IMG/VR virus record: IMGVR_UViG_2563366802_000013
Span: 1-44,878 of that record
DNA from: a virus
Taxonomy: Duplodnaviria; Heunggongvirae; Uroviricota; Caudoviricetes
DNA: 44,878 nt
Reading direction: 5' to 3' (one strand)
Positions 23,992 to 36,804 of the stretch are shown piece by piece. Numbering within the stretch: position 1 is the stretch's first letter; every line of letters begins with the position of its first letter. Position numbers and translations under genes: made by a program. The notes below the pieces were generated by a model that worked only from the letters and a program-made list of their open reading frames with translations, made no database searches and was not told where the DNA came from.

Positions 23992-24022
23992 AGGCCACCT
24001 CCATGACAATCTGAATAAAGCG

Positions 24023-24661
24023 TTACGCCAGCTTCAACATGCACGTCCCGCATGACCTGGCTATATCGATGTGAGCCACTTCTGCTGGCGCATTGGCCGC
24101 ATCAACGAGCTCCTGTACTTCTTTGCTGGCACCGTATCGCCGTACGACACCAGTGAATTCTTCGACGTCGTGGCCGCGCAGTGTAAGCACTGGCTTCCCG
24201 GTCTCTTTGTTGAACTTCGGCGCGCCGAAATCATCTGTGGCCTGGGCGATGTGGTAAAGCTCATGCTCTACCAGTGCGCAGAATTCAAGGTCGCTACACT
24301 GTGAACAGTAATCGGCCGCCAGCGTGATGATGAACTTCGGTATGCGTCCGAACCATTCATGCATCTGCTGTTCCATTCTGGCTTTCTGCCAACCGCCGGC
24401 GCGAAGCATTACCTGTTCGGCCTGACCGAGAACATAGCGCCCCTTCTTCGCGAAAGAGTCAGACGCCCACATGAAGCAGAGGTCAGCTTCAAGAAGGTGT
24501 TCATGGTCTGGGTTATGGATGCTGCCGGTATCGCTGAGGATTTGGCGGTTTATCCACTCACGCACTTCGTTGGCGGGAATGAGCCGGGTGTATGGCTGCC
24601 AGTTCTCGGAGGCGATGAAGTTAACTGGCGGATAAGGCCTGCGCTCGTCATCGTTAGCCAT
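24023..24661 (-). CDS. HExxH motif protein (putative zinc metallopeptidase-like), function unknown
   Basis: 212 aa; HELYH motif in ...CALVEHELYHIAQ...; ATG start; between Rha and TerS. Confidence 0.6.
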   Translation of the reverse strand: MANDDERRPYPPVNFIASENWQPYTRLIPANEVREWINRQILSDTGSIHNPDHEHLLEADLCFMWASDSFAKKGRYVLGQAEQVMLRAGGWQKARMEQQMHEWFGRIPKFIITLAADYCSQCSDLEFCALVEHELYHIAQATDDFGAPKFNKETGKPVLTLRGHDVEEFTGVVRRYGASKEVQELVDAANAPAEVAHIDIARSCGTCMLKLA

Positions 24662-24664
24662 GGG

Positions 24665-24871
24665 TTACTCCGTTGTTTGTTCGGTCTGCTCTGCTGGTAC
24701 TGGCGTGAACTCCACGCGCTTCACGTCGGCAGGGGCAAAGTAAAGCCACTGTCCAGTTTCGGTAGCCAGCGGCACAAAGCCGTTTACCAGTTCAGGCTGA
24801 CGTCGTGACATCTTGCCCGTGAAGGTTTCGCCTGTTTGCGTGGTTAGGGTGATTTGGTAGATGTAGGACAT
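24665..24871 (-). CDS. Hypothetical 68-aa protein
   Basis: ATG with AAAGAGGT SD; stop 1 nt before the HExxH gene start. Confidence 0.45.
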   Translation of the reverse strand: MSYIYQITLTTQTGETFTGKMSRRQPELVNGFVPLATETGQWLYFAPADVKRVEFTPVPAEQTEQTTE

Positions 24872-25026
24872 GATTACCTCTTTGCCTTGTCGCAGCTGTT
24901 GCCCTGCTTCTCAGAAGTGCTTAGCCACTTACGGCTTACCCGTCAGCAAGATATGATCACCATCCTTGCGGGGTTACACAGATCATTATCGAAGCCCCTC
25001 AGTGAAGAGCTTCTGTAATGTCGCGA

Positions 25027-25551
25027 TCAGCCAATCAACAATTCTGGCTGCGTCACCTGCATGATGTGCTCATGCTCAACGGCCAGAACGCGCTTTTCCT
25101 TCTTGCGTTCGTTCATCAATCTGCTGCCGATCGTGCCTTTCAGCTTCGAACGCGTTTCTTTGATGGCGTAGCGGTGCTGCATTTCTTCGCCCATCGCCAG
25201 ACGTCTGCTAAGTTGTTCGGCCATCCAGTTAAATGCGGCGATGTATTGCTCTTTAATAGCGGTAGCTACTTTCCCGGTAAATCCCATTACCAGCATCATC
25301 CACCCGTCTTTTGTGATGTTGTACATCAGACGCATTTCGCCTTTTTTATCGAGATATTCAACGGGCTCAAAATTGAGCCGGTTAAAATCAGGCGAGCAAT
25401 CAACCTCCAGCCGCTTGATAGCACGCAGAACGTTTTTATGCGCCTTGCCGAAATAGCTGGCGATCTTCATAGAAGTGGTGATGACCTTCCCGTTACATGG
25501 CATGACCATTTCGCGGAAGTCGAAGGCTGGAATAACTGACGGATTATTCAT
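25027..25551 (-). CDS. rha: Phage regulatory protein Rha
   Basis: N-terminal domain ...GKVITTSMKIASYFGKAHKNVLRAIKRLEVD matches the Rha/ORF6 N-terminal family; probable ATG at about 25551. Confidence 0.7.
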   Translation of the reverse strand: MNNPSVIPAFDFREMVMPCNGKVITTSMKIASYFGKAHKNVLRAIKRLEVDCSPDFNRLNFEPVEYLDKKGEMRLMYNITKDGWMMLVMGFTGKVATAIKEQYIAAFNWMAEQLSRRLAMGEEMQHRYAIKETRSKLKGTIGSRLMNERKKEKRVLAVEHEHIMQVTQPELLIG

Positions 25552-25696
25552 AGCGTCTTTACCTTTTAGAAAGATGAGCCTGTTCGCACAGAAAAGCCGC
25601 CCCGAGATGGTCGCCACCATATACGGCAGTTCTCAGGCTCAGCTTTCTGAAAGACTCGGGATTGTTATGCGCTGCGATGCGCGGTTTACTGCGGGC

Positions 25697-25724
25697 ATAA
25701 AAAAGCCCGACCGAAGTCAGGCTC
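25697..25724 (-). terminator. Intrinsic terminator downstream of the lysis cassette
   Basis: Minus-strand hairpin AGCCTGAC-ttcg-GTCGGGCT followed by U6. Confidence 0.5.
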
Positions 25725-25742
25725 TGTTATTTGGGTAACGAA

Positions 25743-26216
25743 TCATTTAAGACACTGCTCTTTGATGTAGTCCTGCATGCCGCGAATCATTTTGTCAGCG
25801 GTTGCGATTCCGTCCCGGTGATCGAAATAATTCCGTCGAGCGTCTGGAGTAAGTTCGGGGGATCCTGCATCATCCACGCCGGAGGCGGAGGTGGCTTTGG
25901 ACACTCCAGGGCAGGTTGCAGCGATGCGCAGCCGTTTAGCGCCAGAATCGACATCCCGACGCAAATCGTTAATGGTTTTTTTCGCATCGGACAATTCCTT
26001 CGTGTATTTGGCATCCAGTGCAGCGACATCACGCTGACGTGTCTGCATGTCTTTGATGGTAGCGTGAGCCAGGCTGAGTTTCTCAGTGGCTTTATCGCGC
26101 TGGTCTTTATAGGTGATGGCGTTGTCGCGGTAGTGGTTAACGAAGAACGCCAGCACGCCGATTACCGACACCACAATCAGTTGCAGCCAGTAACGCTTAA
26201 CCAGCGCGCCAATCAT
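25743..26216 (-). CDS. Rz: i-spanin Rz
   Basis: 157 aa; N-terminal TM segment then coiled-coil periplasmic domain; overlaps endolysin stop; contains embedded Rz1 frame. Confidence 0.8.
   Translation of the reverse strand: MIGALVKRYWLQLIVVSVIGVLAFFVNHYRDNAITYKDQRDKATEKLSLAHATIKDMQTRQRDVAALDAKYTKELSDAKKTINDLRRDVDSGAKRLRIAATCPGVSKATSASGVDDAGSPELTPDARRNYFDHRDGIATADKMIRGMQDYIKEQCLK
25787..25987 (-). CDS. Rz1: o-spanin Rz1 (embedded in Rz, +1 frame)
   Basis: Lipobox LALNGC followed by Pro-rich segment (PKPPPPPAW); start taken at internal Met about 25987. Confidence 0.7.
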   Translation of the reverse strand: MRKKPLTICVGMSILALNGCASLQPALECPKPPPPPAWMMQDPPNLLQTLDGIISITGTESQPLTK

Positions 26217-26653
26217 GATAGGAACAGAGTCCGCTCTGCCTCCCGCCGACGAGTCAGCCCGTTAAGGACCTTACCACCCGCTTTATTCCAGCGCAGGAAC
26301 TCATCGGCAGCGCCAGCGTAATCTCCGGCGTTGAGTTTTCGCAGAAGAGTCGATGTCGACAGTGACCGGGCTCCGAGGTTGTACGTGAACGACACCAGGG
26401 CGTCGAATTGCCCCTGAGTCAGACCAACTTTAACCAGGCGAGACACGTCGCTTTCGTAGCTGACAAGTCCGGTCTTCAGCAGGCGTTCTGCCGTTTCCTG
26501 CTTAATCGTCATCCCGGCGCGGATTGGTTTGCCATCGACAGGCTGAGTCCAGCCATATCCGATCGTCCATACACCGACACTGTCCCGGTAGGCGGTGAGT
26601 CTACAGCCTTCGAATTCTTTGATTAGGGCAATGCCCTTTTCGCTGGTTTGCAT
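26213..26653 (-). CDS. Endolysin (phage lysozyme, glycoside hydrolase 24-like)
   Basis: 146 aa; N-terminus GIALIKEFEGCRLTAYRD...WTIGYGWT is the classic T4-type lysozyme catalytic block. Confidence 0.9.
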   Translation of the reverse strand: MQTSEKGIALIKEFEGCRLTAYRDSVGVWTIGYGWTQPVDGKPIRAGMTIKQETAERLLKTGLVSYESDVSRLVKVGLTQGQFDALVSFTYNLGARSLSTSTLLRKLNAGDYAGAADEFLRWNKAGGKVLNGLTRRREAERTLFLS

Positions 26654-26656
26654 GGA

Positions 26657-26932
26657 CTACTCCGTTATAACGACCTTCGCCAGGTTCCCGCGAGCCAGCC
26701 ACACCGCCATGCAGATGACGGAGTTAAGCAGCAGGTCGCCGAGGTTAACCTGTACGTAGTGGCCGAGCAGAATGTTGAAGGCATTGAATCCGGCGGCAAG
26801 GATGACCAGATAGGCCAGCACCGCGACACTAAGGCGATGACGCTTTCCCTCTTTCCGGAAAAACATCAGCCTGACCATGATTAACAGGCAAACTATGGCG
26901 TTTGCATCCATCAGAAGAAGCTGCCATGTCAT
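26657..26932 (-). CDS. Holin-like membrane protein (second holin or antiholin)
   Basis: 91 aa with two hydrophobic segments; immediately upstream of the endolysin. Confidence 0.6.
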   Translation of the reverse strand: MTWQLLLMDANAIVCLLIMVRLMFFRKEGKRHRLSVAVLAYLVILAAGFNAFNILLGHYVQVNLGDLLLNSVICMAVWLARGNLAKVVITE

Positions 26933-27330
26933 TTATCTTCCTCCCCCAGCCCTGGCATCTTCCCGCTTTTGGATTTGCGGAGAATACGCAGCAGGACTGC
27001 CACGGAAATGGAAGCAGTGACAATTGCACCTACAGCTGGCGATACCTCAATGCTGGCCGGTGGCTTCATCAGGCTTAACGGCGTGTTGATGATTCCGGCC
27101 ATGATTTTCGCCATGGGAACGGAGAAGAACACGCCACTGATAAACGATATCAGCGCAAAGATAGCCTGCTTCCAGAGTTGATGGGGATCTGAGGTCAGAA
27201 CGTATAGCGCCGTTCCGGCGAGTGATCCGAGCATCACTGCTGGAGTCGCCTCCGGAAACAGCGTGGCAAAGGTTACACCGACTGATGACGATGCAAGACC
27301 AACGCCTACGATAGTGAAGGTCTCAGACAT
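26929..27330 (-). CDS. Holin
   Basis: About 133 aa from internal ATG near 27330 (MSETFTIVGVGLA...); three hydrophobic segments and a charged C-terminus; first gene of the lysis cassette. Confidence 0.6.
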   Translation of the reverse strand: MSETFTIVGVGLASSSVGVTFATLFPEATPAVMLGSLAGTALYVLTSDPHQLWKQAIFALISFISGVFFSVPMAKIMAGIINTPLSLMKPPASIEVSPAVGAIVTASISVAVLLRILRKSKSGKMPGLGEEDK

Positions 27331-27510
27331 ATTTATTCCGTGTGTAGTTGGTTCAGGCCCTCGGGACGATTTAACAAGAAGGCATGTCGAGGGTGGTTCC
27401 CGGGGCCTGGAATAAAAAACCTGGCGACAAGCCAGGAAGATGAGGGTAAGGCAATGTCGGCTCTCTGGCCGAAGGGTCCCAGGTAGTGGGTTCTGTGTGC
27501 GGCGTACCGC

Positions 27511-27543
27511 AAATAAAAAAGCCCCGCACGATGGCGAGGCTTG
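27511..27543 (-). terminator. Candidate tR'-like terminator in the late leader downstream of Q
   Basis: Minus-strand hairpin AGCCUCGC-caucgu-GCGGGGCU (one G-U pair) followed by U6AUUU; lies between Q and the holin gene. Confidence 0.45.
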
Positions 27544-27602
27544 GCATTCATTCATGTCACACACAACAACGGCAACATATACGATTTATTCTGCTCATTT
27601 GT

Positions 27603-28103
27603 TCATTGAAAAGCAAGCGCGTTATGAGGATTTTTTGCAATTTTCCTCATATTTTCGCGATTGTTAAACGCATTTTGCAGCGGTTGGTACAAACAGAACA
27701 GTGAGGCATTGATGATTTGCTTCACCTCTCTACGGATTGTCGAGATGCTTGGGTGTTTATACTGATTTCCGCCACGCGTCTTCATCAGGCGAGGCTTACT
27801 TACTGCATGCTGCCATGATGCAATTCGGATCTCGCTGGAGTTACAAACGTAGTAGGCGAAGACAACCCGCCAGGCATTTTCATCCACATTCTTCAGATAG
27901 TGACGAATTACAGCATCAATGAGCATCCCGTCATCATCACTACATACCGGTCGTGATGCTTGCTGGGGCTCGACGGTAGCCATGAATCTGGCAATCATGT
28001 TGATCATCGCTTTATCAATCTTGCCGGTCTGGCACCATGCGCCCCACAACTGGAGCCACTGGTCTACCCATTGATGCTGGTCTTTGGTTAATTCCAGTTT
28101 CAT
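27603..28103 (-). CDS. Q: Late-gene antitermination protein Q (phage 21/82-type family)
   Basis: 166 aa; motifs WLQLWGAWC and RPVCSDDDGMLID...FAYYV match the Q antiterminator family as I recall it; positioned immediately upstream of the lysis genes. Confidence 0.8.
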   Translation of the reverse strand: MKLELTKDQHQWVDQWLQLWGAWCQTGKIDKAMINMIARFMATVEPQQASRPVCSDDDGMLIDAVIRHYLKNVDENAWRVVFAYYVCNSSEIRIASWQHAVSKPRLMKTRGGNQYKHPSISTIRREVKQIINASLFCLYQPLQNAFNNRENMRKIAKNPHNALAFQ

Positions 28104-28215
28104 TACGCGGCTTCCTTCTGAGGCTGGTTGGTTTTAGTCTGGCTGTGCTTTGCTACTGGTGGCAGGTTGGCGCGCTTAACGCTTTCGGCCTGGTATCGGG
28201 TTATCTCGTCTCTGG

Positions 28216-28575
28216 TCACGGCGCGCACTCCCCAATAATGATCTGCCCCTTCTCTCCCCAAAGTTTTGTCACCCGACCATCCCAGACGCGGCTGTCGTCG
28301 TCGAAAATTGCATCGAGTAGCGCCTTTTCCAGGTTGTCTTTATCCGGTTTCTGCTGATGAGCCTGGCCGTTAAGTTGCGCGCGCTTCTTCTGGCTCCAGC
28401 TTTTTGGCATGGGAATGATGAAGGTGACGTGATAACCGGACTCAGGCAGACAGATCCCGAGCTGGCGTACTTCGGCTTTAAAAGCCCAATATGCCGCTGT
28501 TGCCGGACGTTTTACCCACCGGTCCCGTTGAGTCATGCGGGGTTTGCTGACTGGCGTGATATCGAAAATATTCAT
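28216..28575 (-). CDS. rusA: Holliday junction resolvase RusA-like
   Basis: Probable start at internal MNIF (about 28575); motif KPDKDNLEKALLDAIFDDD resembles the RusA acidic catalytic block; ATGA overlap with the upstream gene. Confidence 0.65.
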   Translation of the reverse strand: MNIFDITPVSKPRMTQRDRWVKRPATAAYWAFKAEVRQLGICLPESGYHVTFIIPMPKSWSQKKRAQLNGQAHQQKPDKDNLEKALLDAIFDDDSRVWDGRVTKLWGEKGQIIIGECAP

Positions 28576-28862
28576 ATTTTCACGAGCCCCTCTCTCAGCC
28601 AGATGACCTGCGTGCGAGCCATGCCTTCCAGCGCGCACTCCTTTGCATATTCCGCATCGACCAGACGGGTGCGGCGATCAATCTCGTCGTGGCAGCTGCT
28701 GCATGCGATGGTGGCAATCAGGTCAGGCGGCTTGATCCCGGTGCCGCACAGGCCGGCCAGGCGGATATGTGCCAGCACTGAGGTTTCAGAATTTCCATTG
28801 CAAACGCCAGGGATACGCACCTGGCATTCGCGGCCGCGCGCGGCTTTGCATAAATTAGCCAT
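28572..28862 (-). CDS. Cys-rich nin-region protein (DUF1364-like zinc-binding)
   Basis: 96 aa; CQVRIPGVCNG...SSCHDEID cysteine pattern; typical nin-region neighbour of RusA. Confidence 0.55.
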   Translation of the reverse strand: MANLCKAARGRECQVRIPGVCNGNSETSVLAHIRLAGLCGTGIKPPDLIATIACSSCHDEIDRRTRLVDAEYAKECALEGMARTQVIWLREGLVKI

Positions 28863-29025
28863 GCGTTCTCCGTGCCGCGAGACGCAGCCATTTCTGATCC
28901 ACCAGGCGGGCGGTGTACCCCTTCAGGGTCGGGATGTCGGACGGATTAACCGCAGGCTTACGCTGGCGGCGCGCCGGAACGCGGAATATTTCGTTTGTGA
29001 TTACGCGGGAAAGTGGAGTAGACAT
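28855..29025 (-). CDS. Hypothetical 56-aa basic protein
   Basis: Below the track's 60-aa cutoff; ATG with AGGAGG SD; TGATG overlap with the HNH stop; stop overlaps the DUF1364 start. Confidence 0.35.
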   Translation of the reverse strand: MSTPLSRVITNEIFRVPARRQRKPAVNPSDIPTLKGYTARLVDQKWLRLAARRTHG

Positions 29026-29546
29026 CAGGCCTCCTGCTTATCGCGCAGCTGCTGGTAGCAATGACTATTGGGCAGTCCGTGATTGACATGGTAACCATGC
29101 TCAGCCTTTGCCTTGTCGCGAGCTTGCTTTGCTTCTTCCATGCTCTCGTAAACACCCACGAACTTTCTTTTTCCGTCGGCGTTGATCTGGACATGCCACT
29201 TGCTTAGTTTTTTATTCCAATGGATACCAATCTCACCTGATGTATTGGTGCTGGGTAGCGATTTGTTACGGGTATTATCCGACTGGCTTATCAGCCTAAG
29301 GTTTTCAATCCGATTGTCTGCTCGGACGTGATTTATGTGGTCAACCTCCATTCCTTCCGGAATTGGGCCGTTTATCATTTCCCATACAATTCTATGCGCC
29401 AGGTATTGACAGCCAGAGTATTCAAACCTTCTGTAGCCATCGCTAAGACATCCTGCAACGTCACCAATTTTTACCCTGTTAGCTGGCTTTATGGCCCACA
29501 CAAGATTTCCATCAACAATGGAAAATATATCGCTCCAGTTATGCAT
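29025..29546 (-). CDS. HNH homing endonuclease with AP2-like domain (second copy)
   Basis: 173 aa; HNH core MEVDHINHVRADNRIENLRLIS; paralogous to ORF 8641-9108 (shared YLAHRI...E.NGPIP block). Confidence 0.8.
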   Translation of the reverse strand: MHNWSDIFSIVDGNLVWAIKPANRVKIGDVAGCLSDGYRRFEYSGCQYLAHRIVWEMINGPIPEGMEVDHINHVRADNRIENLRLISQSDNTRNKSLPSTNTSGEIGIHWNKKLSKWHVQINADGKRKFVGVYESMEEAKQARDKAKAEHGYHVNHGLPNSHCYQQLRDKQEA

Positions 29547-29994
29547 CTTGGGCCTCCCTCAATTTCTGGTATTGGGAGTCGGAAGGGATGGTCAGGTGAC
29601 AGCCGATGTTCATCGCCCAGGCTTCGACTTTGCACAGGAAGATGTACATCTCGCCGGTTTCCAGATCAGACGTATGGCGGAGTGATTGAACCGTGGTTAC
29701 CTCGCCGGACACGACGTCTACACGGTCTTTGCTTTCGTAGCCGAGATAGGTGTGCTTCATCGCGTCTTTAACCCACTCAGGCGTAGCGAATGTTTTGCCG
29801 CGGGCGATGAGGTACTCGCTGATTTCCGTGTACCACATGTGGCTGAGCGCGTTCTGCGACAGGCTGCGCTTCTCGCGCCACGGCTTAACCTGAAGGCGGA
29901 AGCATTGCCCGGCATCCAGCAATGGCTGAATCTGCTGGCCGATGGCCGCGAAGTTACCGCGATGGAGTTTGATGCCGTCTACTGGCAGAGTCAT
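29539..29994 (-). CDS. ninB: NinB-like recombination protein
   Basis: 151 aa; block RSLSQNALSHMWYTEIS resembles the lambda NinB RSLDQNRKLW region as I recall it. Confidence 0.7.
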   Translation of the reverse strand: MTLPVDGIKLHRGNFAAIGQQIQPLLDAGQCFRLQVKPWREKRSLSQNALSHMWYTEISEYLIARGKTFATPEWVKDAMKHTYLGYESKDRVDVVSGEVTTVQSLRHTSDLETGEMYIFLCKVEAWAMNIGCHLTIPSDSQYQKLREAQDA

Positions 29995-30229
29995 ACGGCC
30001 TCCTTAACGGAAACCGCAGAATGCAGAAAATGGCAGGTGCATTTCTGCATCTGTGACAAGGTGAGGAGTTCAGATTGTTGTCGCATTTAAGTCCCCTTAA
30101 ATGCGCAGAAGTCACCGCCGGGTGTTCAGGCCGTCAGCAAAGAAAGTATGGACGGTTGATTCAACAAAATCAACTGAAGAGAAAGGCCTCCGAAGAGGCC
30201 TGTTTGTTATGCGTCGAATGGGTTAGGCG

Positions 30230-30430
30230 TCATCGCTTGTCCCTTTTCAGTTTGGCGATCGGGTTGTTCCACGCGTCAATATCCTCCTGGATAAGTTTTC
30301 CTTTCCCTTTGCATAGTTCGCATTTTGTCAGCAACCCAAAGCACTTAGGGCACTTAACAAATGGACCAAACTCTCTCTTCCATGAAAGCACGCGAGCATT
30401 GATGATTATCTTGTTTAAGCTTTCCATCAT
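30230..30430 (-). CDS. Small zinc-ribbon protein
   Basis: About 66 aa from internal Met; CPKC...CELCKGKG motif; start abuts the stop of the upstream gene. Confidence 0.4.
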   Translation of the reverse strand: MMESLNKIIINARVLSWKREFGPFVKCPKCFGLLTKCELCKGKGKLIQEDIDAWNNPIAKLKRDKR

Positions 30431-31041
30431 GCCTCCTGCTGCGGTGCTGCTGGCAGTGGCATCCAGTGGGTTGGGCTCCATGATGCTCCTGGTATAATCC
30501 AGCCATCTATATCTGCATCCGGATGCCCAGGGCAATTTGTTGCCCATTTCATTGCATAGCCGCCAGGAGCTGATTGCCATGGCGCAGCAACTATCACACC
30601 TGTTGATGGGCTTGGCATCCGCTTACTGCAATCCACCCAACCGTCTGTCAACTCATCACGATTACTTACAGGTTCGGCACCATGAAGCATGGCGGCGCGG
30701 CACTGATTGAATCCATGTGCCCATGCTGATGCAAGAGCCATATCGTCTTCGGTGATTTCCTCTGGAACATCTTCCCAGCAAACTTCATCAGGCACAGATA
30801 CCGGCGCAGGCGGGGCGGAGCGATACAGAAGCACATCCCCCATCTCTGCTCTGGATGCTGGCCACACGTCAGCATCGGAGCCAGATTTGAGATAATCAAG
30901 ATTGGACTGGTCTATGACGCACACAGGCTCCGCTTCGAGCGATGCCAGCGCGATACGCGCCAGCTCCACTACATCATCGTGCGTATAGCATTTCTCGCCG
31001 CTGGCGATACCAGCAACGCGTTCTTTGGTAATAGTGCTCAT
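30427..31041 (-). CDS. Hypothetical protein with C-terminal DUF551-like domain
   Basis: 204 aa; C-terminal W...SKRMP...HWMPLPAAP pattern characteristic of DUF551 phage proteins. Confidence 0.5.
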   Translation of the reverse strand: MSTITKERVAGIASGEKCYTHDDVVELARIALASLEAEPVCVIDQSNLDYLKSGSDADVWPASRAEMGDVLLYRSAPPAPVSVPDEVCWEDVPEEITEDDMALASAWAHGFNQCRAAMLHGAEPVSNRDELTDGWVDCSKRMPSPSTGVIVAAPWQSAPGGYAMKWATNCPGHPDADIDGWIIPGASWSPTHWMPLPAAPQQEA

Positions 31042-31475
31042 GATGCCTCTCCTTTACCGGCTGCGGCGGGTACGTCGATGCCAGCAGCAGACAAAGCTAT
31101 TCGGAACGCTTCCTTCAAATCTGCAATCTGCTTGTCTTTGGCTTCCAGCTCATCCAACATCCTACCCAGAGTTTTGGTGTGCATTTCTTCTCGCTCAAGC
31201 AATGCTGTTCCGCAATGTCGTTGCTCAAGTTCAGCAATCTCATTCAGCAGCGCCAGCATTGTTTCCGGGCTAGCTGCAGCGATATATCTCAATACGTTTT
31301 CAGACTGTTTCACTCTCCCTGCGGCTTTATTCAGACAGTAGATAGCCTCTGCTCCGCCTACTGTGATATATCCCCGCCCTGGGGCGCTGAGGTCGCTGGT
31401 GTAGACGTACTCCCAGTCATTTTGTCCTGCACGTTCAGCCGCTTCACGTAATGCGCGTTTGTCGATGTTGCTCAT
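31038..31475 (-). CDS. Ead/Ea22-like protein
   Basis: 145 aa; N-terminus MSNIDKRALREAAERA... followed by coiled-coil segment typical of Ead/Ea22-like proteins. Confidence 0.65.
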   Translation of the reverse strand: MSNIDKRALREAAERAGQNDWEYVYTSDLSAPGRGYITVGGAEAIYCLNKAAGRVKQSENVLRYIAAASPETMLALLNEIAELEQRHCGTALLEREEMHTKTLGRMLDELEAKDKQIADLKEAFRIALSAAGIDVPAAAGKGEAS

Positions 31476-31786
31476 TGGGCGGCCTCCTTCACTTCCTTAT
31501 CGCCATTTACCCATCCTTCCTGGAAATCAACATCACCTGGGTAGATGCATTTTGCAGCGTGCTGAACATCACTCCAGTTCATGTTATTTGCTGCCCAGTC
31601 TTCTATTTCAAAATCATCAGAGCGGAATAGCGGAAGGGTGTCTTCTGCCAAACTACGGTATAAATCACCGCCAAACTCTTTGGCGTAATGCTCAGCTCTG
31701 TGCGTGGCAATCAACTGGACTGGCACTGCCCAAACACTGCTGTCAGGCATCGTGACGTGAAGCTCTTTATCGATTACTCTGCTCAT
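31472..31786 (-). CDS. Hypothetical protein
   Basis: 104-aa ORF with overlapping junctions to neighbours. Confidence 0.45.
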   Translation of the reverse strand: MSRVIDKELHVTMPDSSVWAVPVQLIATHRAEHYAKEFGGDLYRSLAEDTLPLFRSDDFEIEDWAANNMNWSDVQHAAKCIYPGDVDFQEGWVNGDKEVKEAAQ

Positions 31787-32355
31787 GACTGCACTCCTTT
31801 GCGAAGCTGGGCGGCGATGTCTTCGAGTACTCCATCAGCGAATGAGCGATCGAAATCTCCCTCTGGCGCGTCAGCCATAAACTCTGTGGAAGTTAGTATC
31901 ATTCGTGCGATGTCCGCAGCGTTCCTTGCGGTGTCGTCGATAAATCCGGCATCCCATGCAGCAAGCATTCGATTAGCAACAAAGTAAGCACCTTCTTCGC
32001 GAGCTTTTGATTGCACTCCAGCCAGGAAAGCTTCGGTAGCTGGGGTTTTCGGGAACATCTGCGACTCCTCAGCATTGACGTAAGAATCACAAACGTCGCT
32101 ACCATCGCCATCATATGAATAACAGCTCTGAGAAATGAACGACTTCAGCCCCGCATTCTCCGCAGCCAGCGCCGCGCATCTGGCTTCAAGTGCGGCGTAG
32201 TCTTCGTAATCAACCATATCGCCTTCAGCACTCTCTATCACGTCGCAATGGCACGCATGCTCATCACAGGCCACCCACTCATAACGTTTCACGTTCATAC
32301 CCCTACCCTCCCCCAAACCATCAATACCCTTCTCATCGCCGGACTGTTTCGGCAC
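31783..32355 (-). CDS. Hypothetical acidic protein (Ea22-like coiled-coil segment)
   Basis: Probable start at internal Met about 32298 (MNVKRYEWV...); Cys/His cluster near the N-terminus. Confidence 0.4.
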   Translation of the reverse strand: MPKQSGDEKGIDGLGEGRGMNVKRYEWVACDEHACHCDVIESAEGDMVDYEDYAALEARCAALAAENAGLKSFISQSCYSYDGDGSDVCDSYVNAEESQMFPKTPATEAFLAGVQSKAREEGAYFVANRMLAAWDAGFIDDTARNAADIARMILTSTEFMADAPEGDFDRSFADGVLEDIAAQLRKGVQS

Positions 32356-32639
32356 TCCTGGCAGATCACGTTTGTGCCCGTCCGCTGAATTAACTTCGAC
32401 TTGCCCTGCTTCATGCCCGGTATAGTGTCAGGGGCGAAGCGCATGCCGTAACTGGTAAGGCTGTACAGGCGCTGGCCGTATTTTCCTTCGCAGCTGATCA
32501 GGCCGTCAGCCAGCAGCGTGCTCACCGTCCCGGATATCTTTTTGGTGTCCATGCCGATAAGACCTGCCAGCTTGGCGTTGTTCAGCCCTGGGTTGTTACG
32601 CAGGGCTGCCAGCACCTGCTCACGGATTGTTATGGTCAT
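32295..32639 (-). CDS. Winged-helix DNA-binding protein (hypothetical)
   Basis: 114 aa; N-terminal HTH-like segment (LAALRNNPGLNNAKLAGLIGMDTKKISGTVSTLLADGLI); directly downstream of dnaB. Confidence 0.45.
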   Translation of the reverse strand: MTITIREQVLAALRNNPGLNNAKLAGLIGMDTKKISGTVSTLLADGLISCEGKYGQRLYSLTSYGMRFAPDTIPGMKQGKSKLIQRTGTNVICQECRNSPAMRRVLMVWGRVGV

Positions 32640-34072
32640 CAGAATCCCCCTTTCTTTTTCGGCTGCTGCTCACGCCCGCGGCGTTCTGCGGCGGCGGCCT
32701 GCTGGTCTGTGTCGTAAATTGCCCCGTTGATCTGATTGCAATAAACCGTTCCGGTACTGCCGTGGCGGTTGAGTCGCAGGATTAACTCGGTTTCTCCCGG
32801 CGGCACGCTGTCATCGAAAGCACCTTCCCGGTGGATACCAACCCAGTAGTCGCAGTCCTGCTCAATCTGCCCTGTGTCGCGGGAATCGCTCGGTAACGGG
32901 CGTTTATTCACTCGCTTCTCCAGTTCGCGGTTGAGCTGGGTCAGCAGCACGACGACGCAGCCAAGCTCTTTAGCGAGGTTCTTCAACCCTTTGGTGATCA
33001 TCCCGTAGGCAAGGTCATTACGGTCTGCTTTTTCGGCGGTCATCAGCGTCAGGTAATCAACCAGAATCATGCCTACGCGGCCCTTCTCGCGTTTGATTCG
33101 GCGGCTTTCGCTAACGATGTGCGCCAGTGACAGGCCCGGAGTGTCGTCGATGTACAGCATGTCGATTTCACTCAGCCGGCCCGCTGTAGCGATCGCCTTC
33201 TTAAAGTCGCCGTCGTAGTCTCCCTGGTACTGGTCGTCGGCGTCATCCGTGGCGGGCATGTAAAAAATGCTCGGGTTTACGCCGGACTTCTGCCCAACAA
33301 GCTTTTCGAGGATCTGGTCGCTGGGCATTTCCAGGCTAAACATCAGCGCTGGCTTTTTCTCGCGAATCGCGCAGTTGATCGCCATCTGCCCGTACAGGGT
33401 TGTCTTGCCCATCTTTGGTCTTGCGCCAATCACAAACAGGGAACCTTTCACCAGGCCTTTCGGCGCTAACAGTCGGTCGAGTGACGGGATGCCGGTACTC
33501 ATGCCACGCTGTTCGCCTGAAGGGTCGAAACGCTTCTCCAGATCCGCCACCCAGTCATCCATAACCTCGCCGAACGACCGCAACCCACGGCGACTGCCGG
33601 TTTTTGAATGGTCTGCGAGCTGGGTGAAAATACCCTGAATGGCCTCGTACTTCTGCGTGGCACTCATGCCGTTGCGGGAATACAGCAGCTCAGTAGCTTC
33701 GGTCAGGCGGTTGATACCGTAGCGCTCCATTGCGGCTTCCCGGACTGATGCAGCGTATGCAACGATGTTTGCAGCGCTTGGAGTGTTCTTGGCGATCTCC
33801 GCCAGGTATGCAAAGCCACCTACCTGCTCCGCGAGCCCTTTGCCTTCGAGCGCGTCGAACAATGTCAGACCATCGACTGGCTTGTTGTCGCGGAACATCT
33901 GGCGCATCTCGGCAAAGATCAGCTGGTGAGGTCGGCTGTAGAACGACTCAGGCTTGAGCATCGCCAGAACCTTCTGGACTCGCTCGCTGTTGTCATCGTC
34001 CAGCAGCAGGCCACCGATAACGCTCTGCTCTGCTTCGAGGTTATGAGGTACAGCCATGAATTCAGCGGTCAT
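32639..34072 (-). CDS. dnaB: Replicative DNA helicase (DnaB family)
   Basis: About 477 aa; N-terminal DnaB domain (NLEAEQSVIGGLLLD), Walker A (GARPKMGKT) and RecA-like fold motifs; ATG near 34072. Confidence 0.9.
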   Translation of the reverse strand: MTAEFMAVPHNLEAEQSVIGGLLLDDDNSERVQKVLAMLKPESFYSRPHQLIFAEMRQMFRDNKPVDGLTLFDALEGKGLAEQVGGFAYLAEIAKNTPSAANIVAYAASVREAAMERYGINRLTEATELLYSRNGMSATQKYEAIQGIFTQLADHSKTGSRRGLRSFGEVMDDWVADLEKRFDPSGEQRGMSTGIPSLDRLLAPKGLVKGSLFVIGARPKMGKTTLYGQMAINCAIREKKPALMFSLEMPSDQILEKLVGQKSGVNPSIFYMPATDDADDQYQGDYDGDFKKAIATAGRLSEIDMLYIDDTPGLSLAHIVSESRRIKREKGRVGMILVDYLTLMTAEKADRNDLAYGMITKGLKNLAKELGCVVVLLTQLNRELEKRVNKRPLPSDSRDTGQIEQDCDYWVGIHREGAFDDSVPPGETELILRLNRHGSTGTVYCNQINGAIYDTDQQAAAAERRGREQQPKKKGGF

Positions 34073-34961
34073 CACGATCCCCCTCGCGCACTTCGATGTA
34101 GAGCTTTTCGGTCAGGAACTTATCGAATTTCATGCGGCGCCAGGTCTTCCCGGATTTCTGGTCTGGTCGGTCTTCAAGCATCCAGCGGCAGTTCTGAGCG
34201 ATGTAGCGCAGATAGCTTCTGAAACCGTCCATATCCATCGGCTTGCCGTCCAGGTTGCGGGCAATCTTGTTAGCCTTACCCCAGAAGGTGCGGATCAGAT
34301 TGCGTCGCTCATCAGTGAGGCATCTCCACCCCCGGGCTTCAGGCAGTTCGTCTTTCAGGCATTGCCATACTTCATCGCATGACAAACGGGACTTTTTCTC
34401 TTCAGCGGGTTTCTGGTCATTTGCGACATACTTACTACCGTTAGGTAGTAAGTTATTTAATATATTGTTATCTGTGGACACTGGCTGGACATCGGCTGGA
34501 CACTCCACCTCCGCAGGCATTGGTACGGCTGCGCTTGGGCTGGACACTGGCTGGACATCGGCTGGACAAAAATTTGACTGATATTCGTCATATTTGACCA
34601 CTTTTAGAACAGTGAAACGGTTGTTCGACTTGGTGGTGATCATGCCCAGATTCTGGAATTTACGGAGCAGTGATTTAACGCGATCAGCGGTCAAACCCGT
34701 TTCCATTGCCAGTGTGTTTCGCCCGGTGATGAACTCTCCGCGCTCGCAGATCACATCGCCAACATCAGTAGATACCAGTGTCTGTTCATGATTAGCACGC
34801 AGGAGCAGGTGAACCCATAAATGAGCCGCCTCAGCGTCCTTGTAGAACGGCACATCCATAATTTTACGGTGCAGCAAGGCAAACCCCTTACCGTCATTCG
34901 TGCGCGGTTTCTGGAGCCTTCTGGCCTCTCTGGCTTCGGCTAAATTGGATACGTTACCCAC
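34062..34961 (-). CDS. Replication initiator (lambda O-like) containing the origin iterons
   Basis: Probable GTG start near 34961 with AAGGAG SD; N-terminal DNA-binding region; internal repeated peptide CPADVQPVS encoded by the iterons; C-terminal helicase-loading-like domain. Confidence 0.7.
   Translation of the reverse strand: MGNVSNLAEAREARRLQKPRTNDGKGFALLHRKIMDVPFYKDAEAAHLWVHLLLRANHEQTLVSTDVGDVICERGEFITGRNTLAMETGLTADRVKSLLRKFQNLGMITTKSNNRFTVLKVVKYDEYQSNFCPADVQPVSSPSAAVPMPAEVECPADVQPVSTDNNILNNLLPNGSKYVANDQKPAEEKKSRLSCDEVWQCLKDELPEARGWRCLTDERRNLIRTFWGKANKIARNLDGKPMDMDGFRSYLRYIAQNCRWMLEDRPDQKSGKTWRRMKFDKFLTEKLYIEVREGDRDDR
34476..34567. repeat. Origin-of-replication iterons (six copies of GCTGGACA-containing 11-bp units in two clusters) with adjacent AT-rich tract
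   Basis: GGACACTGGCTGGACATCGGCTGGACA at about 34476-34502 and again at 34538-34567; AT-rich stretch at about 34440-34472; located inside the O-like gene as in lambda ori. Confidence 0.6.
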
Positions 34962-35100
34962 GGCCAATCTCCTTACGTTTCAGTTCTTCCAGAATGGCGC
35001 GCATCTTCTCTGCCACAATCGGGTTAACCGAGCGGATGAAGCGGTCGCGGGTTATGTTTTTATGTACAGCGGTATGGTAATAGCGTGGATTTTTTGCCAT
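34954..35100 (-). CDS. Hypothetical small basic protein (48 aa)
   Basis: ATG near 35100 with AGGAGG SD; between YdaT-like and O-like genes. Confidence 0.35.
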   Translation of the reverse strand: MAKNPRYYHTAVHKNITRDRFIRSVNPIVAEKMRAILEELKRKEIGRG

Positions 35101-35189
35101 TATTCCTCCTGCAATGAGTGCACACGATTTGCATCTGAAGGCCAGTTCTGTTCGCGCAGACTGGCTTTCGCCATTTTTGAAACTTCCCA

Positions 35190-35732
35190 TCACATAACCC
35201 CCAACATCGAAGTGACCATAGCCATCAGCGGCGCGGTCAGATCCGGGTCGACACGGAACATCTCTACAATCCCCTCACTGAGTTCCTTGAGCTTCTGGTG
35301 ACGCGGGGCGTTCATCGCAACGGCCACTTTCGCCTCGCTCGTTTCCTTCTCAAGTCGAGCTAAGCGGGACATGAAACTATCCTCGGGAAGAAGTCGATGG
35401 CGATACTCCAGAGGCAGCACGGCCATGATTGCGGGCGTCAGCTGGCGCACGTTCTCGCGGTACTGCTCGGAGTCGAAGCGATTATCCAGGAAGCGAAACA
35501 GTTTCTGGCGCGCCCGGCTGATGTCTTCCGGAAAGCTGATGGCGGTACCGCCCTGCTCCCGGTATTCGTTGATGATCAGCGCCGAAACGACGTCCTGATT
35601 GTCCAGCGCCGACGACCATGCCCGGACCGCATCGCGGATCTTTTCGTGGTCTGGCGCCGCTTTAGCTTGAGCGCGGTTTATCACCGCTCCCTGGTGTATT
35701 CCGGTATTGTGTTGATACGCAAGTGAATGCAT
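35190..35732 (-). CDS. YdaT-like regulatory protein (CII-position)
   Basis: 180 aa; resembles Rac prophage YdaT as I recall it (QKLFRFL, LTPAIMAVLP blocks); directly downstream of the Cro/YdaS-like gene. Confidence 0.55.
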   Translation of the reverse strand: MHSLAYQHNTGIHQGAVINRAQAKAAPDHEKIRDAVRAWSSALDNQDVVSALIINEYREQGGTAISFPEDISRARQKLFRFLDNRFDSEQYRENVRQLTPAIMAVLPLEYRHRLLPEDSFMSRLARLEKETSEAKVAVAMNAPRHQKLKELSEGIVEMFRVDPDLTAPLMAMVTSMLGVM

Positions 35733-35761
35733 TGCTTTCCCTTTCGTGGTTAGGGCCGCCG

Positions 35762-35989
35762 TTAAGCGGCATGGTTCTCTGGGTGTGGAAACAGGTCGGG
35801 AAGATCAGGTCGAATTTCGTGTGCCTTAATCTCGCCACCAGTAGCGTTTACGATGGCTGTTACTTTTTCCGGAGATACGGAACCACCGTTAAGCCACTTG
35901 TGAACCGCTGGCTGGCTAACGCCGCAAATATCTGCGAGTCGCTTCTGGCTGCCAACGATTTCTAAAGCTCGTTGAATAACTTTGTTCAT
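35762..35989 (-). CDS. cro: Cro/YdaS-like HTH repressor
   Basis: 75 aa; HTH SQKRLADICGVSQPAVHKWLNG; divergent from cI across the operator region. Confidence 0.75.
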   Translation of the reverse strand: MNKVIQRALEIVGSQKRLADICGVSQPAVHKWLNGGSVSPEKVTAIVNATGGEIKAHEIRPDLPDLFPHPENHAA

Positions 35990-36022
35990 GGATTTTACCT
36001 ATCCGATTACTGGATTAATGAA

Positions 36023-36099: not shown

Positions 36100-36804
36100 A
36101 TGAAAACATTCGCAGATCGACTTAACGCGGCTATGAGAGCCGCAGGCATATCCCAAGGGCAGCTGGCTGAGAAAGTCGGCATATCTCAACCTGCAATTCA
36201 GAAAATGACATCAGGCAAAACCACAGGCAGCCGTAAGATGGTTGAGCTTGCTCATGCATTGAACGTGCGTCCGGAATGGCTCAGTTCGGGCATAGGCTCA
36301 ATGCAGGACGAAGGACGCAAGGACTCCGCTATCCCACCAGAATCGGAATGGGGTAAAGTTGACGCTTGGGATAGCAAAACAGATCTGCCAGATGACGAGG
36401 TCGAAGTGCCATATCTGAAAGACATAGAACTTGCGTGTGGTGATGGTTCCTGCTTGGAAGATGACTATAACGGATTCAAACTTCGTTTTGCGAAGTCTAC
36501 CCTTCGTAAGGTGGGAGCCCAGAAAGATAGCGTGCTGTGCTTCCCGGCATCAGGAAATAGCATGGAGCCCATGATCCCGGAAGGGACGACGGTCGCCATC
36601 AACACGAACGACAAAAAGATCGTTGATGGCAAGGTTTATGCAATAAGCCAGGACGGATGGAAAAGGCTAAAATCCATTTATCGTGTGAGTCCTACCCGCA
36701 TCGTGATTCGCAGCTTCAACAGTGAAGAGTACCCTGATGAAGAAGCGGATATCGAGAGCGTAGAGATTATTGGTCGCATGTTCTGGACATCTACTATCTG
36801 GTAA
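36100..36804 (+). CDS. cI: CI-type prophage repressor (N-terminal HTH, C-terminal S24 LexA-like autopeptidase)
   Basis: 234 aa; HTH ISQGQLAEKVGISQPAIQKM; S24 catalytic block GNSMEP and Lys in ...DGWKRLK... Confidence 0.9.
   Translation: MKTFADRLNAAMRAAGISQGQLAEKVGISQPAIQKMTSGKTTGSRKMVELAHALNVRPEWLSSGIGSMQDEGRKDSAIPPESEWGKVDAWDSKTDLPDDEVEVPYLKDIELACGDGSCLEDDYNGFKLRFAKSTLRKVGAQKDSVLCFPASGNSMEPMIPEGTTVAINTNDKKIVDGKVYAISQDGWKRLKSIYRVSPTRIVIRSFNSEEYPDEEADIESVEIIGRMFWTSTIW

Follow-up and report, generated by a model that had tools for sequence, protein, structure and literature searches.

A perfect 10-bp inverted repeat upstream of the ninB/ybcN-family gene of a lambdoid phage most likely forms an RNA hairpin in which the start codon of a very small leader gene is concealed. 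We studied this repeat in a window of 44,878 nucleotides, positions 1 to 44,878 of IMG/VR record IMGVR_UViG_2563366802_000013. The hairpin, which we call H2, is one module of a cassette of about 190 nt that comprises, in order of transcription, promoter-like hexamers, hairpin H1, H2, a leader open reading frame (ORF) and hairpin H4. Judged from its pattern of sequence conservation, H2 is a real and probably functional element of an ordinary mechanistic kind. In the reading that we favor, and to which we give a probability of roughly 0.6, H2 gates the leader ORF, and translation of the leader ORF opens H4 for ninB/ybcN, in the manner of a two-lock translational relay. The object of interest is the whole conserved cassette more than the palindrome alone.

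Results

Genomic setting of the repeat

The window is a lambdoid phage or prophage whose closest relatives are the Enterobacter phages CobraSix and ENT1 and the coliphage HK639. Its early-right operon lies on the minus strand (Table 1), and the ninB/ybcN-family gene, whose product is an Orf-family recombination mediator, is followed on its 3' side by genes for an HNH endonuclease, YbcO, RusA and the Q antiterminator. The HNH endonuclease gene (29025-29546; Pfam HNH_3, 4e-22) is an insertion that separates ninB from ybcO, with an 8-nt overlap at the ninB stop; in phage 82, phi80, HK225 and DLP12, the relatives examined, it is ninE and not an HNH gene that comes after ninB/ybcN. About 60-100 nt 3' of the Q gene, a strong terminator-like hairpin on the minus strand (27500-27545; GCCUCGCCAUCGUGCGGGGC then UUUUUUAUUU) is presumably the pR'-proximal terminator of a 6S-RNA-like arrangement. 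The only motif common to the cassette and the late promoter region 3' of Q is a CCTGAAC heptamer at chance level. On the 5' side of the repeat, the small Zn-ribbon ORF carries the motif CxxC...CxxCxGxG and matches phrog_4517, a family of unknown function. It probably encodes only about 67 aa; its likely start is an ATG that follows GGAGG and falls within the end of the DUF551 gene.

Table 1. Features of the early-right region and of the leader cassette, in window coordinates.
Feature	Position	Strand	Remarks
cI-like repressor	36100-36804	+	
O	34062-34967	-	
DnaB-like helicase	32639-34075	-	
DUF551 protein	30427-31041	-	
Small Zn-ribbon ORF	30230-30433	-	stop at 30230
Intrinsic-terminator-like hairpin	30184..30201	-	AGGCCUC-UUCG-GAGGCCU then UUCUCUUC; terminator scan: 7 pairs, 5 GC, T-rich tail
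Promoter-like element	30145..30173	-	-35 TTGATT 30173..30168; 17-nt spacer; -10 CATACT 30150..30145
Hairpin H1	30112..30140	-	9-nt loop CCUGAACAC
Hairpin H2	30082..30105	-	CGCAUUUAAG-GGGA-CUUAAAUGCG; predicted -13.3 kcal/mol
Leader ORF	29991..30086	-	31 codons (MRQQSELLTLSQMQKCTCHFLHSAVSVKEAV); UGA overlaps ninB AUG (AUGA)
Small hairpin	30034..30053	-	CAG-A-UGCA-GAAA-UGCA-C-CUG; RNAalifold consensus, inside leader ORF
Hairpin H4	29991..30020	-	UCUGCGGUUUCC-GUUAA-GGAGGCCGUA(U)GA; predicted -16 kcal/mol
ninB/YbcN-family gene	29539-29994	-	151 aa; Pfam NinB weak; NCBIfam PRK09741 1e-76

The repeat, CGCATTTAAG-tccc-CTTAAATGCG, is present at 30082-30105 with all 10 positions of its arms complementary around a 4-nt spacer. 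A first-pass annotation of this DNA had placed it downstream of ninB, in a 235-bp gap rich in structure. The length of the gap, from the Zn-ribbon stop (30230) to the ninB start (29994), is as described, but the genes here run on the minus strand, which puts the repeat on the upstream side of ninB with respect to transcription. The gap is indeed structured; it is not empty, however, since 96 nt of it form a conserved 31-codon ORF with its ATG inside the repeat. This leader ORF, with its ribosome-binding site (RBS) and start codon inside a hairpin, had been missed. Two further hairpins named in the same annotation are both present, ATGCAGAAA/TTTCTGCAT at 30021-30029/30042-30050 and AGGCCTC-cgaa-GAGGCCT at 30184-30201. 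The second had been counted toward a regulatory density of structure, but it is the intrinsic terminator of the upstream gene: it follows directly on the Zn-ribbon ORF in a tR2-like position, combines a G+C-rich stem with a U tract and lies outside the conserved cassette. H2 itself does not have this make-up, as its A/U-rich stem is followed by ACAACAAUCUG, and the terminator scan does not list it.

Anatomy of the cassette

The promoter-like hexamers that open the cassette are nearly invariant over 117 aligned copies, with a variable spacer between them, and the annotation of phage 82 (X92588) marks the same hexamers as a putative -35/-10. Most relatives carry CATAAT at the -10 position where the window has CATACT. 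The version in the window scores 8/12, which accounts for its absence from the promoter scan list. The Cappable-seq and SMRT-Cappable-seq supplements have no transcription start site entry for the predicted promoter upstream of ylcH, the E. coli K-12 homologue of the leader ORF. The -35 hexamer is overlapped by a dyad that is unique in the window (TTGATT-N6-AATCAA, 30156-30173). Its ATCAA half is nearly invariant among copies despite the variable spacer, and its spacing is unlike that of the FNR/CRP type.

H1 of the window contains an A·G mismatch and reaches -6.7 kcal/mol, against a typical value of -15.7. Its 5' arm (GCUGACGG) comes from one H1 variant and its 3' arm (CCGGCGGU) from another, and it is weakened because the two arms have these different origins. 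From the sequence, the chimera looks like the product of a crossover inside the conserved loop. The linker between H1 and H2 reads CUUCUG in the window.

In H2, a Shine-Dalgarno-like GGGG lies in or next to the loop, which sits 5 nt 5' of the leader AUG (30086-30084), and the AUG itself lies in the 3' arm. The RBS and AUG of an ORF are thus held within a hairpin, the geometry by which start codons are sequestered. Folding of the minus-strand transcript, the check that had been proposed for this repeat, predicts H2 as a stable hairpin (-13.3 kcal/mol), and the 161-nt leader as a whole folds better than 200 of 200 shuffled sequences (z = -3.6).

Within the leader ORF, the small hairpin closed by a GNRA tetraloop is almost invariant in nucleotides, and four sequences preserve one of its pairs by changing both sides (UGCU..GGCA). 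This small hairpin and the longer ATGCAGAAA/TTTCTGCAT pairing (30021-30050) are in competition, and the small one is the better conserved of the two. The longer hairpin is not clearly an RNA-level element: its antisense folds better, its pairs include 24 A·C mismatches and some variants break the pairing. Searches against Rfam gave no match at gathering thresholds over the whole window, and at E <= 10 on 29900-30300 only weak matches, which fall on the upstream terminator.

Comparative evidence for an RNA helix

Searching IMG/VR with two exact conserved words gave about 160 loci, from which 117 distinct copies of the cassette were aligned; most of these copies are very similar because the retrieval used exact words. 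A covariance model of H1 and H2 recovered 63 copies, exactly one of them in the window, and base pairs were counted on 61 distinct copies. In this alignment of closely related copies, which the covariance model had fitted to the structure, standard pairs fill 96.4% of cells, compared with 82.9% in shuffles (0 of 500 reach the observed value) and 24-48% when the partners are slid. All cells of the H2 helix are paired (100%), with 5 of its 10 pairs changing on both sides and 4 invariant, and the H1 helix is 93% paired, with compensatory change at 9 of 11 pairs. At least 8 different H2 stem sequences, all of them complementary, occur on a constant loop, which reads GGGA in all well-formed copies except one with GGAA. 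They include CGCAUUUAAG (the window type), UGCGCUUUGAG, CGCAUUUGAUG, CGCAUAUGAUU and UGCAUCUGAUU, among others, and a stem of the phage 82 type in which UAAACG/CGUUUA with a bulged U is joined to GCGC/GCGC. Independent compensatory events in H2 are few, corresponding to three main stem types and some singletons. Isolate phages retrieved by BLAST, and thus not selected by pattern, carry the same H2 types.

The two strands differ in what they tolerate. Among non-Watson-Crick combinations, G·U outnumbers A·C by 77 to 1 in H1, 6 to 0 in H2 and 175 to 2 in H4. The sense strand is the more stable one in 12 of 12 H2 variants and in 66 of 66 H4 variants, where it folds at -15.2 kcal/mol against -7.3 for the antisense. 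A constant center, arms that vary and remain complementary, wobble on one strand and a bulge together argue for an RNA helix and not for a DNA operator.

A DNA site had been among the first proposals for this repeat, in the form of a dyad-symmetric binding site for a regulator; a cruciform or recombination site would belong to the same class. Its perfect symmetry in the window is what such a site would show, and earlier annotators attached palindrome labels to parts of the cassette, a regulator-binding site in phage 82 (on H1, not on H2) and 'IR4' in phi80. We nevertheless regard a DNA site as very improbable. An operator of this type would have conserved arms, a free center and usually more than one site, and H2 reverses that pattern, with varying arms around a conserved center. 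G·U-type wobbles are confined to one strand and one major variant has a bulged base. The 24-mer occurs once in the window even when 3 mismatches are allowed, and its half-site is not enriched. Neither the dyad, nor its half-site, nor the dyad at the -35 hexamer has second copies elsewhere in the window beyond chance, and the operator reading therefore falls away. The cassette is also found in phages of differing immunity and antitermination types.

Taken as a palindrome alone, the repeat does not stand out statistically. Perfect inverted repeats with arms of at least 10 and loops of 3-8 nt number 2 in the window, while 40 dinucleotide shuffles give 0.48 on average, and the repeat owes its significance to its conservation with covariation. 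A palindrome devoid of function, carried by a segment that spreads through recombination among lambdoid phages, would be in keeping with a count within chance, with the near identity of most copies and with the location of the cassette at a mosaic junction. Such a passive origin is highly improbable in our estimation; differing stem sequences all preserve the pairing, the loop and the position of the AUG. The sole other perfect 10-bp inverted repeat of the window (34430-34453, ACTTACTACC-taac-GGTAGTAAGT) lies within the O gene, beside a stretch rich in A/T and two groups of TGTCCAGCC iterons (34470-34570). The layout of 34430-34570 is that of a lambda-type replication origin.

A leader ORF that overlaps the ninB start

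Homologues of the leader ORF are ylcH (b4588) of E. coli K-12 and orf33 of phage 82. Its start codon, ATG or, in one stem type, GTG, lies 4-6 nt after the H2 loop in 114 of 117 copies, and in 112 of the 117 a frame of 29-33 codons ends in ATGA or GTGA, overlapping the next start. The frame is kept through indels even though the N-terminal third of the peptide is hypervariable and differs in length (variants include MRPQSELLTLSQ, MRTYNPNSLLPSQ, VQTTIRTPFNQSQ and MRNTKSTSHHLSQ), which argues in favor of translation of the ORF and suggests that the act of translation matters and not the peptide. Because the center of the ORF is conserved at the nucleotide level, the ORF could in part be a by-product of RNA-level constraint. 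The leader peptide has no family match in NCBIfam or PHROGs. No Ribo-seq or proteomic record of ylcH translation was found in the part of the literature searched.

H4 buries both the Shine-Dalgarno sequence (GGAGG) and the AUG of ninB. Three covarying versions of its stem occur (CGGUUUCC/GGAGGCCG, CGUUACCUC/GAGGUGGCG and CGUUUGACCUC/GAGGUGAAGCG), all of which bury the downstream Shine-Dalgarno sequence and start; H4 is partly recovered by RNAalifold, and its support comes from per-variant folding and wobble asymmetry. An overlapping stop and start combined with a buried downstream RBS is the arrangement of genes that are coupled through a leader. The gene 3' of the cassette belongs to the Orf/NinB family in nearly every copy, either as a YbcN-type (151 aa) or as a NinB-type (143-149 aa) gene. 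On the 5' side, at least 23 different and unrelated genes occur.

A transcript end beside H2 in E. coli K-12

Published Term-seq data place an RNA 3' end at position 572349 (+) of MG1655 (Adams et al., 2021; PMC7815308, supplementary files 1 and 3). This end precedes ylcH by 19 nt and ybcN by 117 nt. On the K-12 cassette, the position is 5 nt past H1 and coincides with the 5' foot of the H2 homologue. The end does not indicate that transcripts terminate at H2 itself; H1 is either a weak terminator, with a U-poor tail (ACUUCU), or the marker of a cleavage site. The first-pass annotation had suggested a regulatory or RNA-processing site rather than a plain spacer, a suggestion that was to be given up if the dyad were not conserved in related phages and no transcript ended there. 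Related phages and prophages retain the dyad, and in K-12 a transcript end lies beside its homologue, so the idea of a regulatory RNA structure survives; the DNA binding site offered along with it does not.

The same transcript end bears on the possibility that H2 is chiefly an element of mRNA processing or stability. A cut or end between H1 and H2 would then leave H2 to shield the 5' end of the nin mRNA. The K-12 3' end falls within the very 5-nt linker that abuts the H2 homologue on its 5' side, an exonuclease trimming from downstream would be expected to halt at H2 and not before it, and the linker (ACUUCUGCGC) is nearly invariant across copies. Weak termination at H1, however, explains the 3' end equally well. 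No matching 5' end is documented, and the constant placement of the AUG in the 3' arm is left unexplained. We therefore judge a primary role in processing to be quite unlikely.

A further possibility is that the pair of hairpins H1 and H2 serves as an antiterminator RNA in cis, resembling either HK022 put or a site of the nut/boxB type. HK022 put (putL or putR) is an RNA of about 70 nt with two irregular stem-loops that acts on the zinc-binding domain of the RNA polymerase beta' subunit, and HK639, a close relative of the phage in the window, reportedly uses put-type antitermination. With two adjacent stem-loops in about 65 nt, right after promoter-like hexamers and just past a terminator, the cassette invites the comparison. 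Yet the covariance model of H1 and H2 finds nothing significant in the HK022 region 24000-36000 (best match 9.4 bits, E = 0.31). In put, the stems contain non-canonical pairs and a triplex and are irregular (PMC9378689); H1 and H2 form regular helices and lack these features. Phi80 has the cassette besides its own N and annotated nut sites. The 10-bp stem and GGGA tetraloop of H2 also differ from the 5-bp stem and GNRA-like pentaloop of boxB, and no boxA-like CGCUCUUA, expected 8-9 nt upstream in a nut site, is present upstream of H2. An antitermination role accordingly seems to us improbable in the extreme.

Distribution and earlier annotation

BLAST of the segment found the cassette in phi80, 82, HK225, HK639, CobraSix and other phages, and in 475 complete E. 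coli genomes. A copy of the phage 82 type is present in 2954 of 5426 complete E. coli genomes, including the DLP12 prophage of K-12 MG1655, and the cassette also occurs in O157:H7 prophages. A 15-mer scan of genome contigs gave almost only chance matches, a single Lelliottia locus (L207) being real, so that the distribution of the cassette among taxa other than E. coli and Enterobacter phages is poorly sampled.

The leaders of DLP12 ylcH-ybcN and phage 82 orf33-orf151 share with the window the hexamers, H1, H2 with its GGGA loop, an ORF of 31-33 codons and the overlapping stop and start. The window, phi80, HK225 and HK639 have the 'type A' H2 stem, whereas 'type B', which is UAAACG/CGUUUA with a bulged U, is found in phage 82 and DLP12. 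Compared with DLP12 and phage 82, the window has a weaker -10 (CATACT) and the chimeric H1.

Some viral contigs contain two copies of the cassette (L032, 12917-13116 and 10506-10705; L031, 2277-2340 and 4588-4651; L099, 6808-7007 and 10915-11114). On L032, the upstream copy consists of promoter, H1, H2 and a degenerate leader ORF and is followed by inserted moron-like genes, including one for a Rha/Bro-like protein; the second copy is followed by ybcN. Phage PhiR26_1 has the cassette in front of a Rha gene, beside a PD-lambda-1 defence gene.

Parts of the cassette have been noticed before. The annotation of phage 82 (X92588) gives, besides the putative -35/-10, a 'possible regulator-binding site' on H1 (not on H2), an RBS and orf33. 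In phi80, the arms of H2 are marked only as the repeat 'IR4'. HK225 (HK225_060) and RefSeq call the small ORF hypothetical, and K-12 annotation places ylcH directly before ybcN. The hairpin and the small ORF were thus recorded in 1996 (phage 82), in 2012 (phi80) and as ylcH, by annotations that give no function, and our search of the literature found no functional study of the cassette.

Discussion

The features described above suggest how two hairpins could act in series. H2 would form on the minus-strand early-right/nin transcript and display the Shine-Dalgarno-like GGGG in its tetraloop while pairing the leader AUG, and few ribosomes would then start the leader; initiation would be throttled because H2 base-pairs the AUG. 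Ribosomes that translate the leader would melt H4, terminate at AUGA and could reinitiate on ninB. As a ribosome would have to melt H4 and could reinitiate at AUGA, NinB synthesis would be coupled to the leader, with H2 as the upstream gate. The anatomy, its conservation and covariation, the strand asymmetry and the maintained frame are observed; the model adds the suppositions that leader translation is reduced by H2, that expression of ninB requires the leader and that some factor opens H2. We infer the last point because a hairpin of -13 kcal/mol would by itself nearly silence the ORF. No alternative 'open' conformation of H2 was identified, and a stem of this predicted stability would be too stable to serve as a thermometer at physiological temperature.

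One candidate for a factor acting on H2 is a protein. H2 could be an RNA operator on whose constant GGGA loop host CsrA or a phage RNA-binding protein represses or activates translation of the leader, a proposal that refines our main reading and does not replace it. CsrA prefers GGA in hairpin loops that overlap ribosome-binding sites. The H2 loop is near-invariant on a variable stem, and a GGA is also found at the junction of loop and 3' arm in H4. The conservation of the loop is, however, already accounted for by its Shine-Dalgarno role, and the two GGA sites lie about 95 nt apart, farther than a CsrA dimer typically bridges. Searches turned up no CLIP or interaction record, and the Hfq CLASH supplement contains neither ylcH nor ybcN. 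We hold an RNA operator to be unlikely.

In a broader and tentative version of the two-lock relay, the cassette of about 190 nt may be an autonomous riboregulator of the nin recombination genes, with two RBS locks that are opened by a specific signal. That signal could be a trans-acting RNA or protein, or an H1 RNA of about 31 nt from the same promoter, with the invariant CCUGAACAA loop of H1 as recognition element. We consider such an autonomous device unlikely.

If the model is right, the cassette is of a mechanistically well-known kind, which combines hairpins that sequester start sites with coupling through a leader ORF. In mok-hok of plasmid R1, and in the coat-dependent opening of MS2 RNA, translation of an upstream ORF is coupled to that of a downstream gene whose RBS is sequestered. 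The cassette resembles these systems in that the downstream Shine-Dalgarno sequence and AUG are locked in a predicted hairpin that only a ribosome on the upstream ORF would open, with overlapping stop and start and a structured upstream start. It differs in that it is without a toxin, with no antisense RNA evident and no opposite-strand promoter predicted, that the leader peptide is not hydrophobic and that the downstream gene encodes a recombination mediator. For H2 itself, the closer likenesses are the initiation hairpin of the MS2 coat gene and lambda cIII, where alternative mRNA structures set the level of translation. There, as in H2, the AUG is paired in a stable local hairpin, with the Shine-Dalgarno sequence near or in the loop.

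The isrK-orf45-anrP locus of Gifsy-1, a lambdoid prophage, has one promoter from which come both a short RNA that is terminated and a long mRNA that is inactive in translation. It has in common with the cassette a promoter (a predicted one in the cassette) followed early by an RNA 3' end, a read-through mRNA with a small ORF at its start, and a place in the nin-Q region. It differs in that no sequence or Rfam match links it to the cassette, although isrK is in Rfam.

The cassette precedes an Orf/NinB-family recombination mediator in many lambdoid phages and prophages and is without an Rfam family. It is also a patch of shared homology at a mosaic junction. Recombination appears to have taken place inside it, as the H1 of the window is chimeric. 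If the relay holds, it would explain a low and coupled level of the recombination genes of the nin region. The ybcN-rusA operon of DLP12 is reportedly poorly expressed, which would be consistent with a block at the relay. The cassette would then provide a compact, well-conserved model for two-step translational gating.
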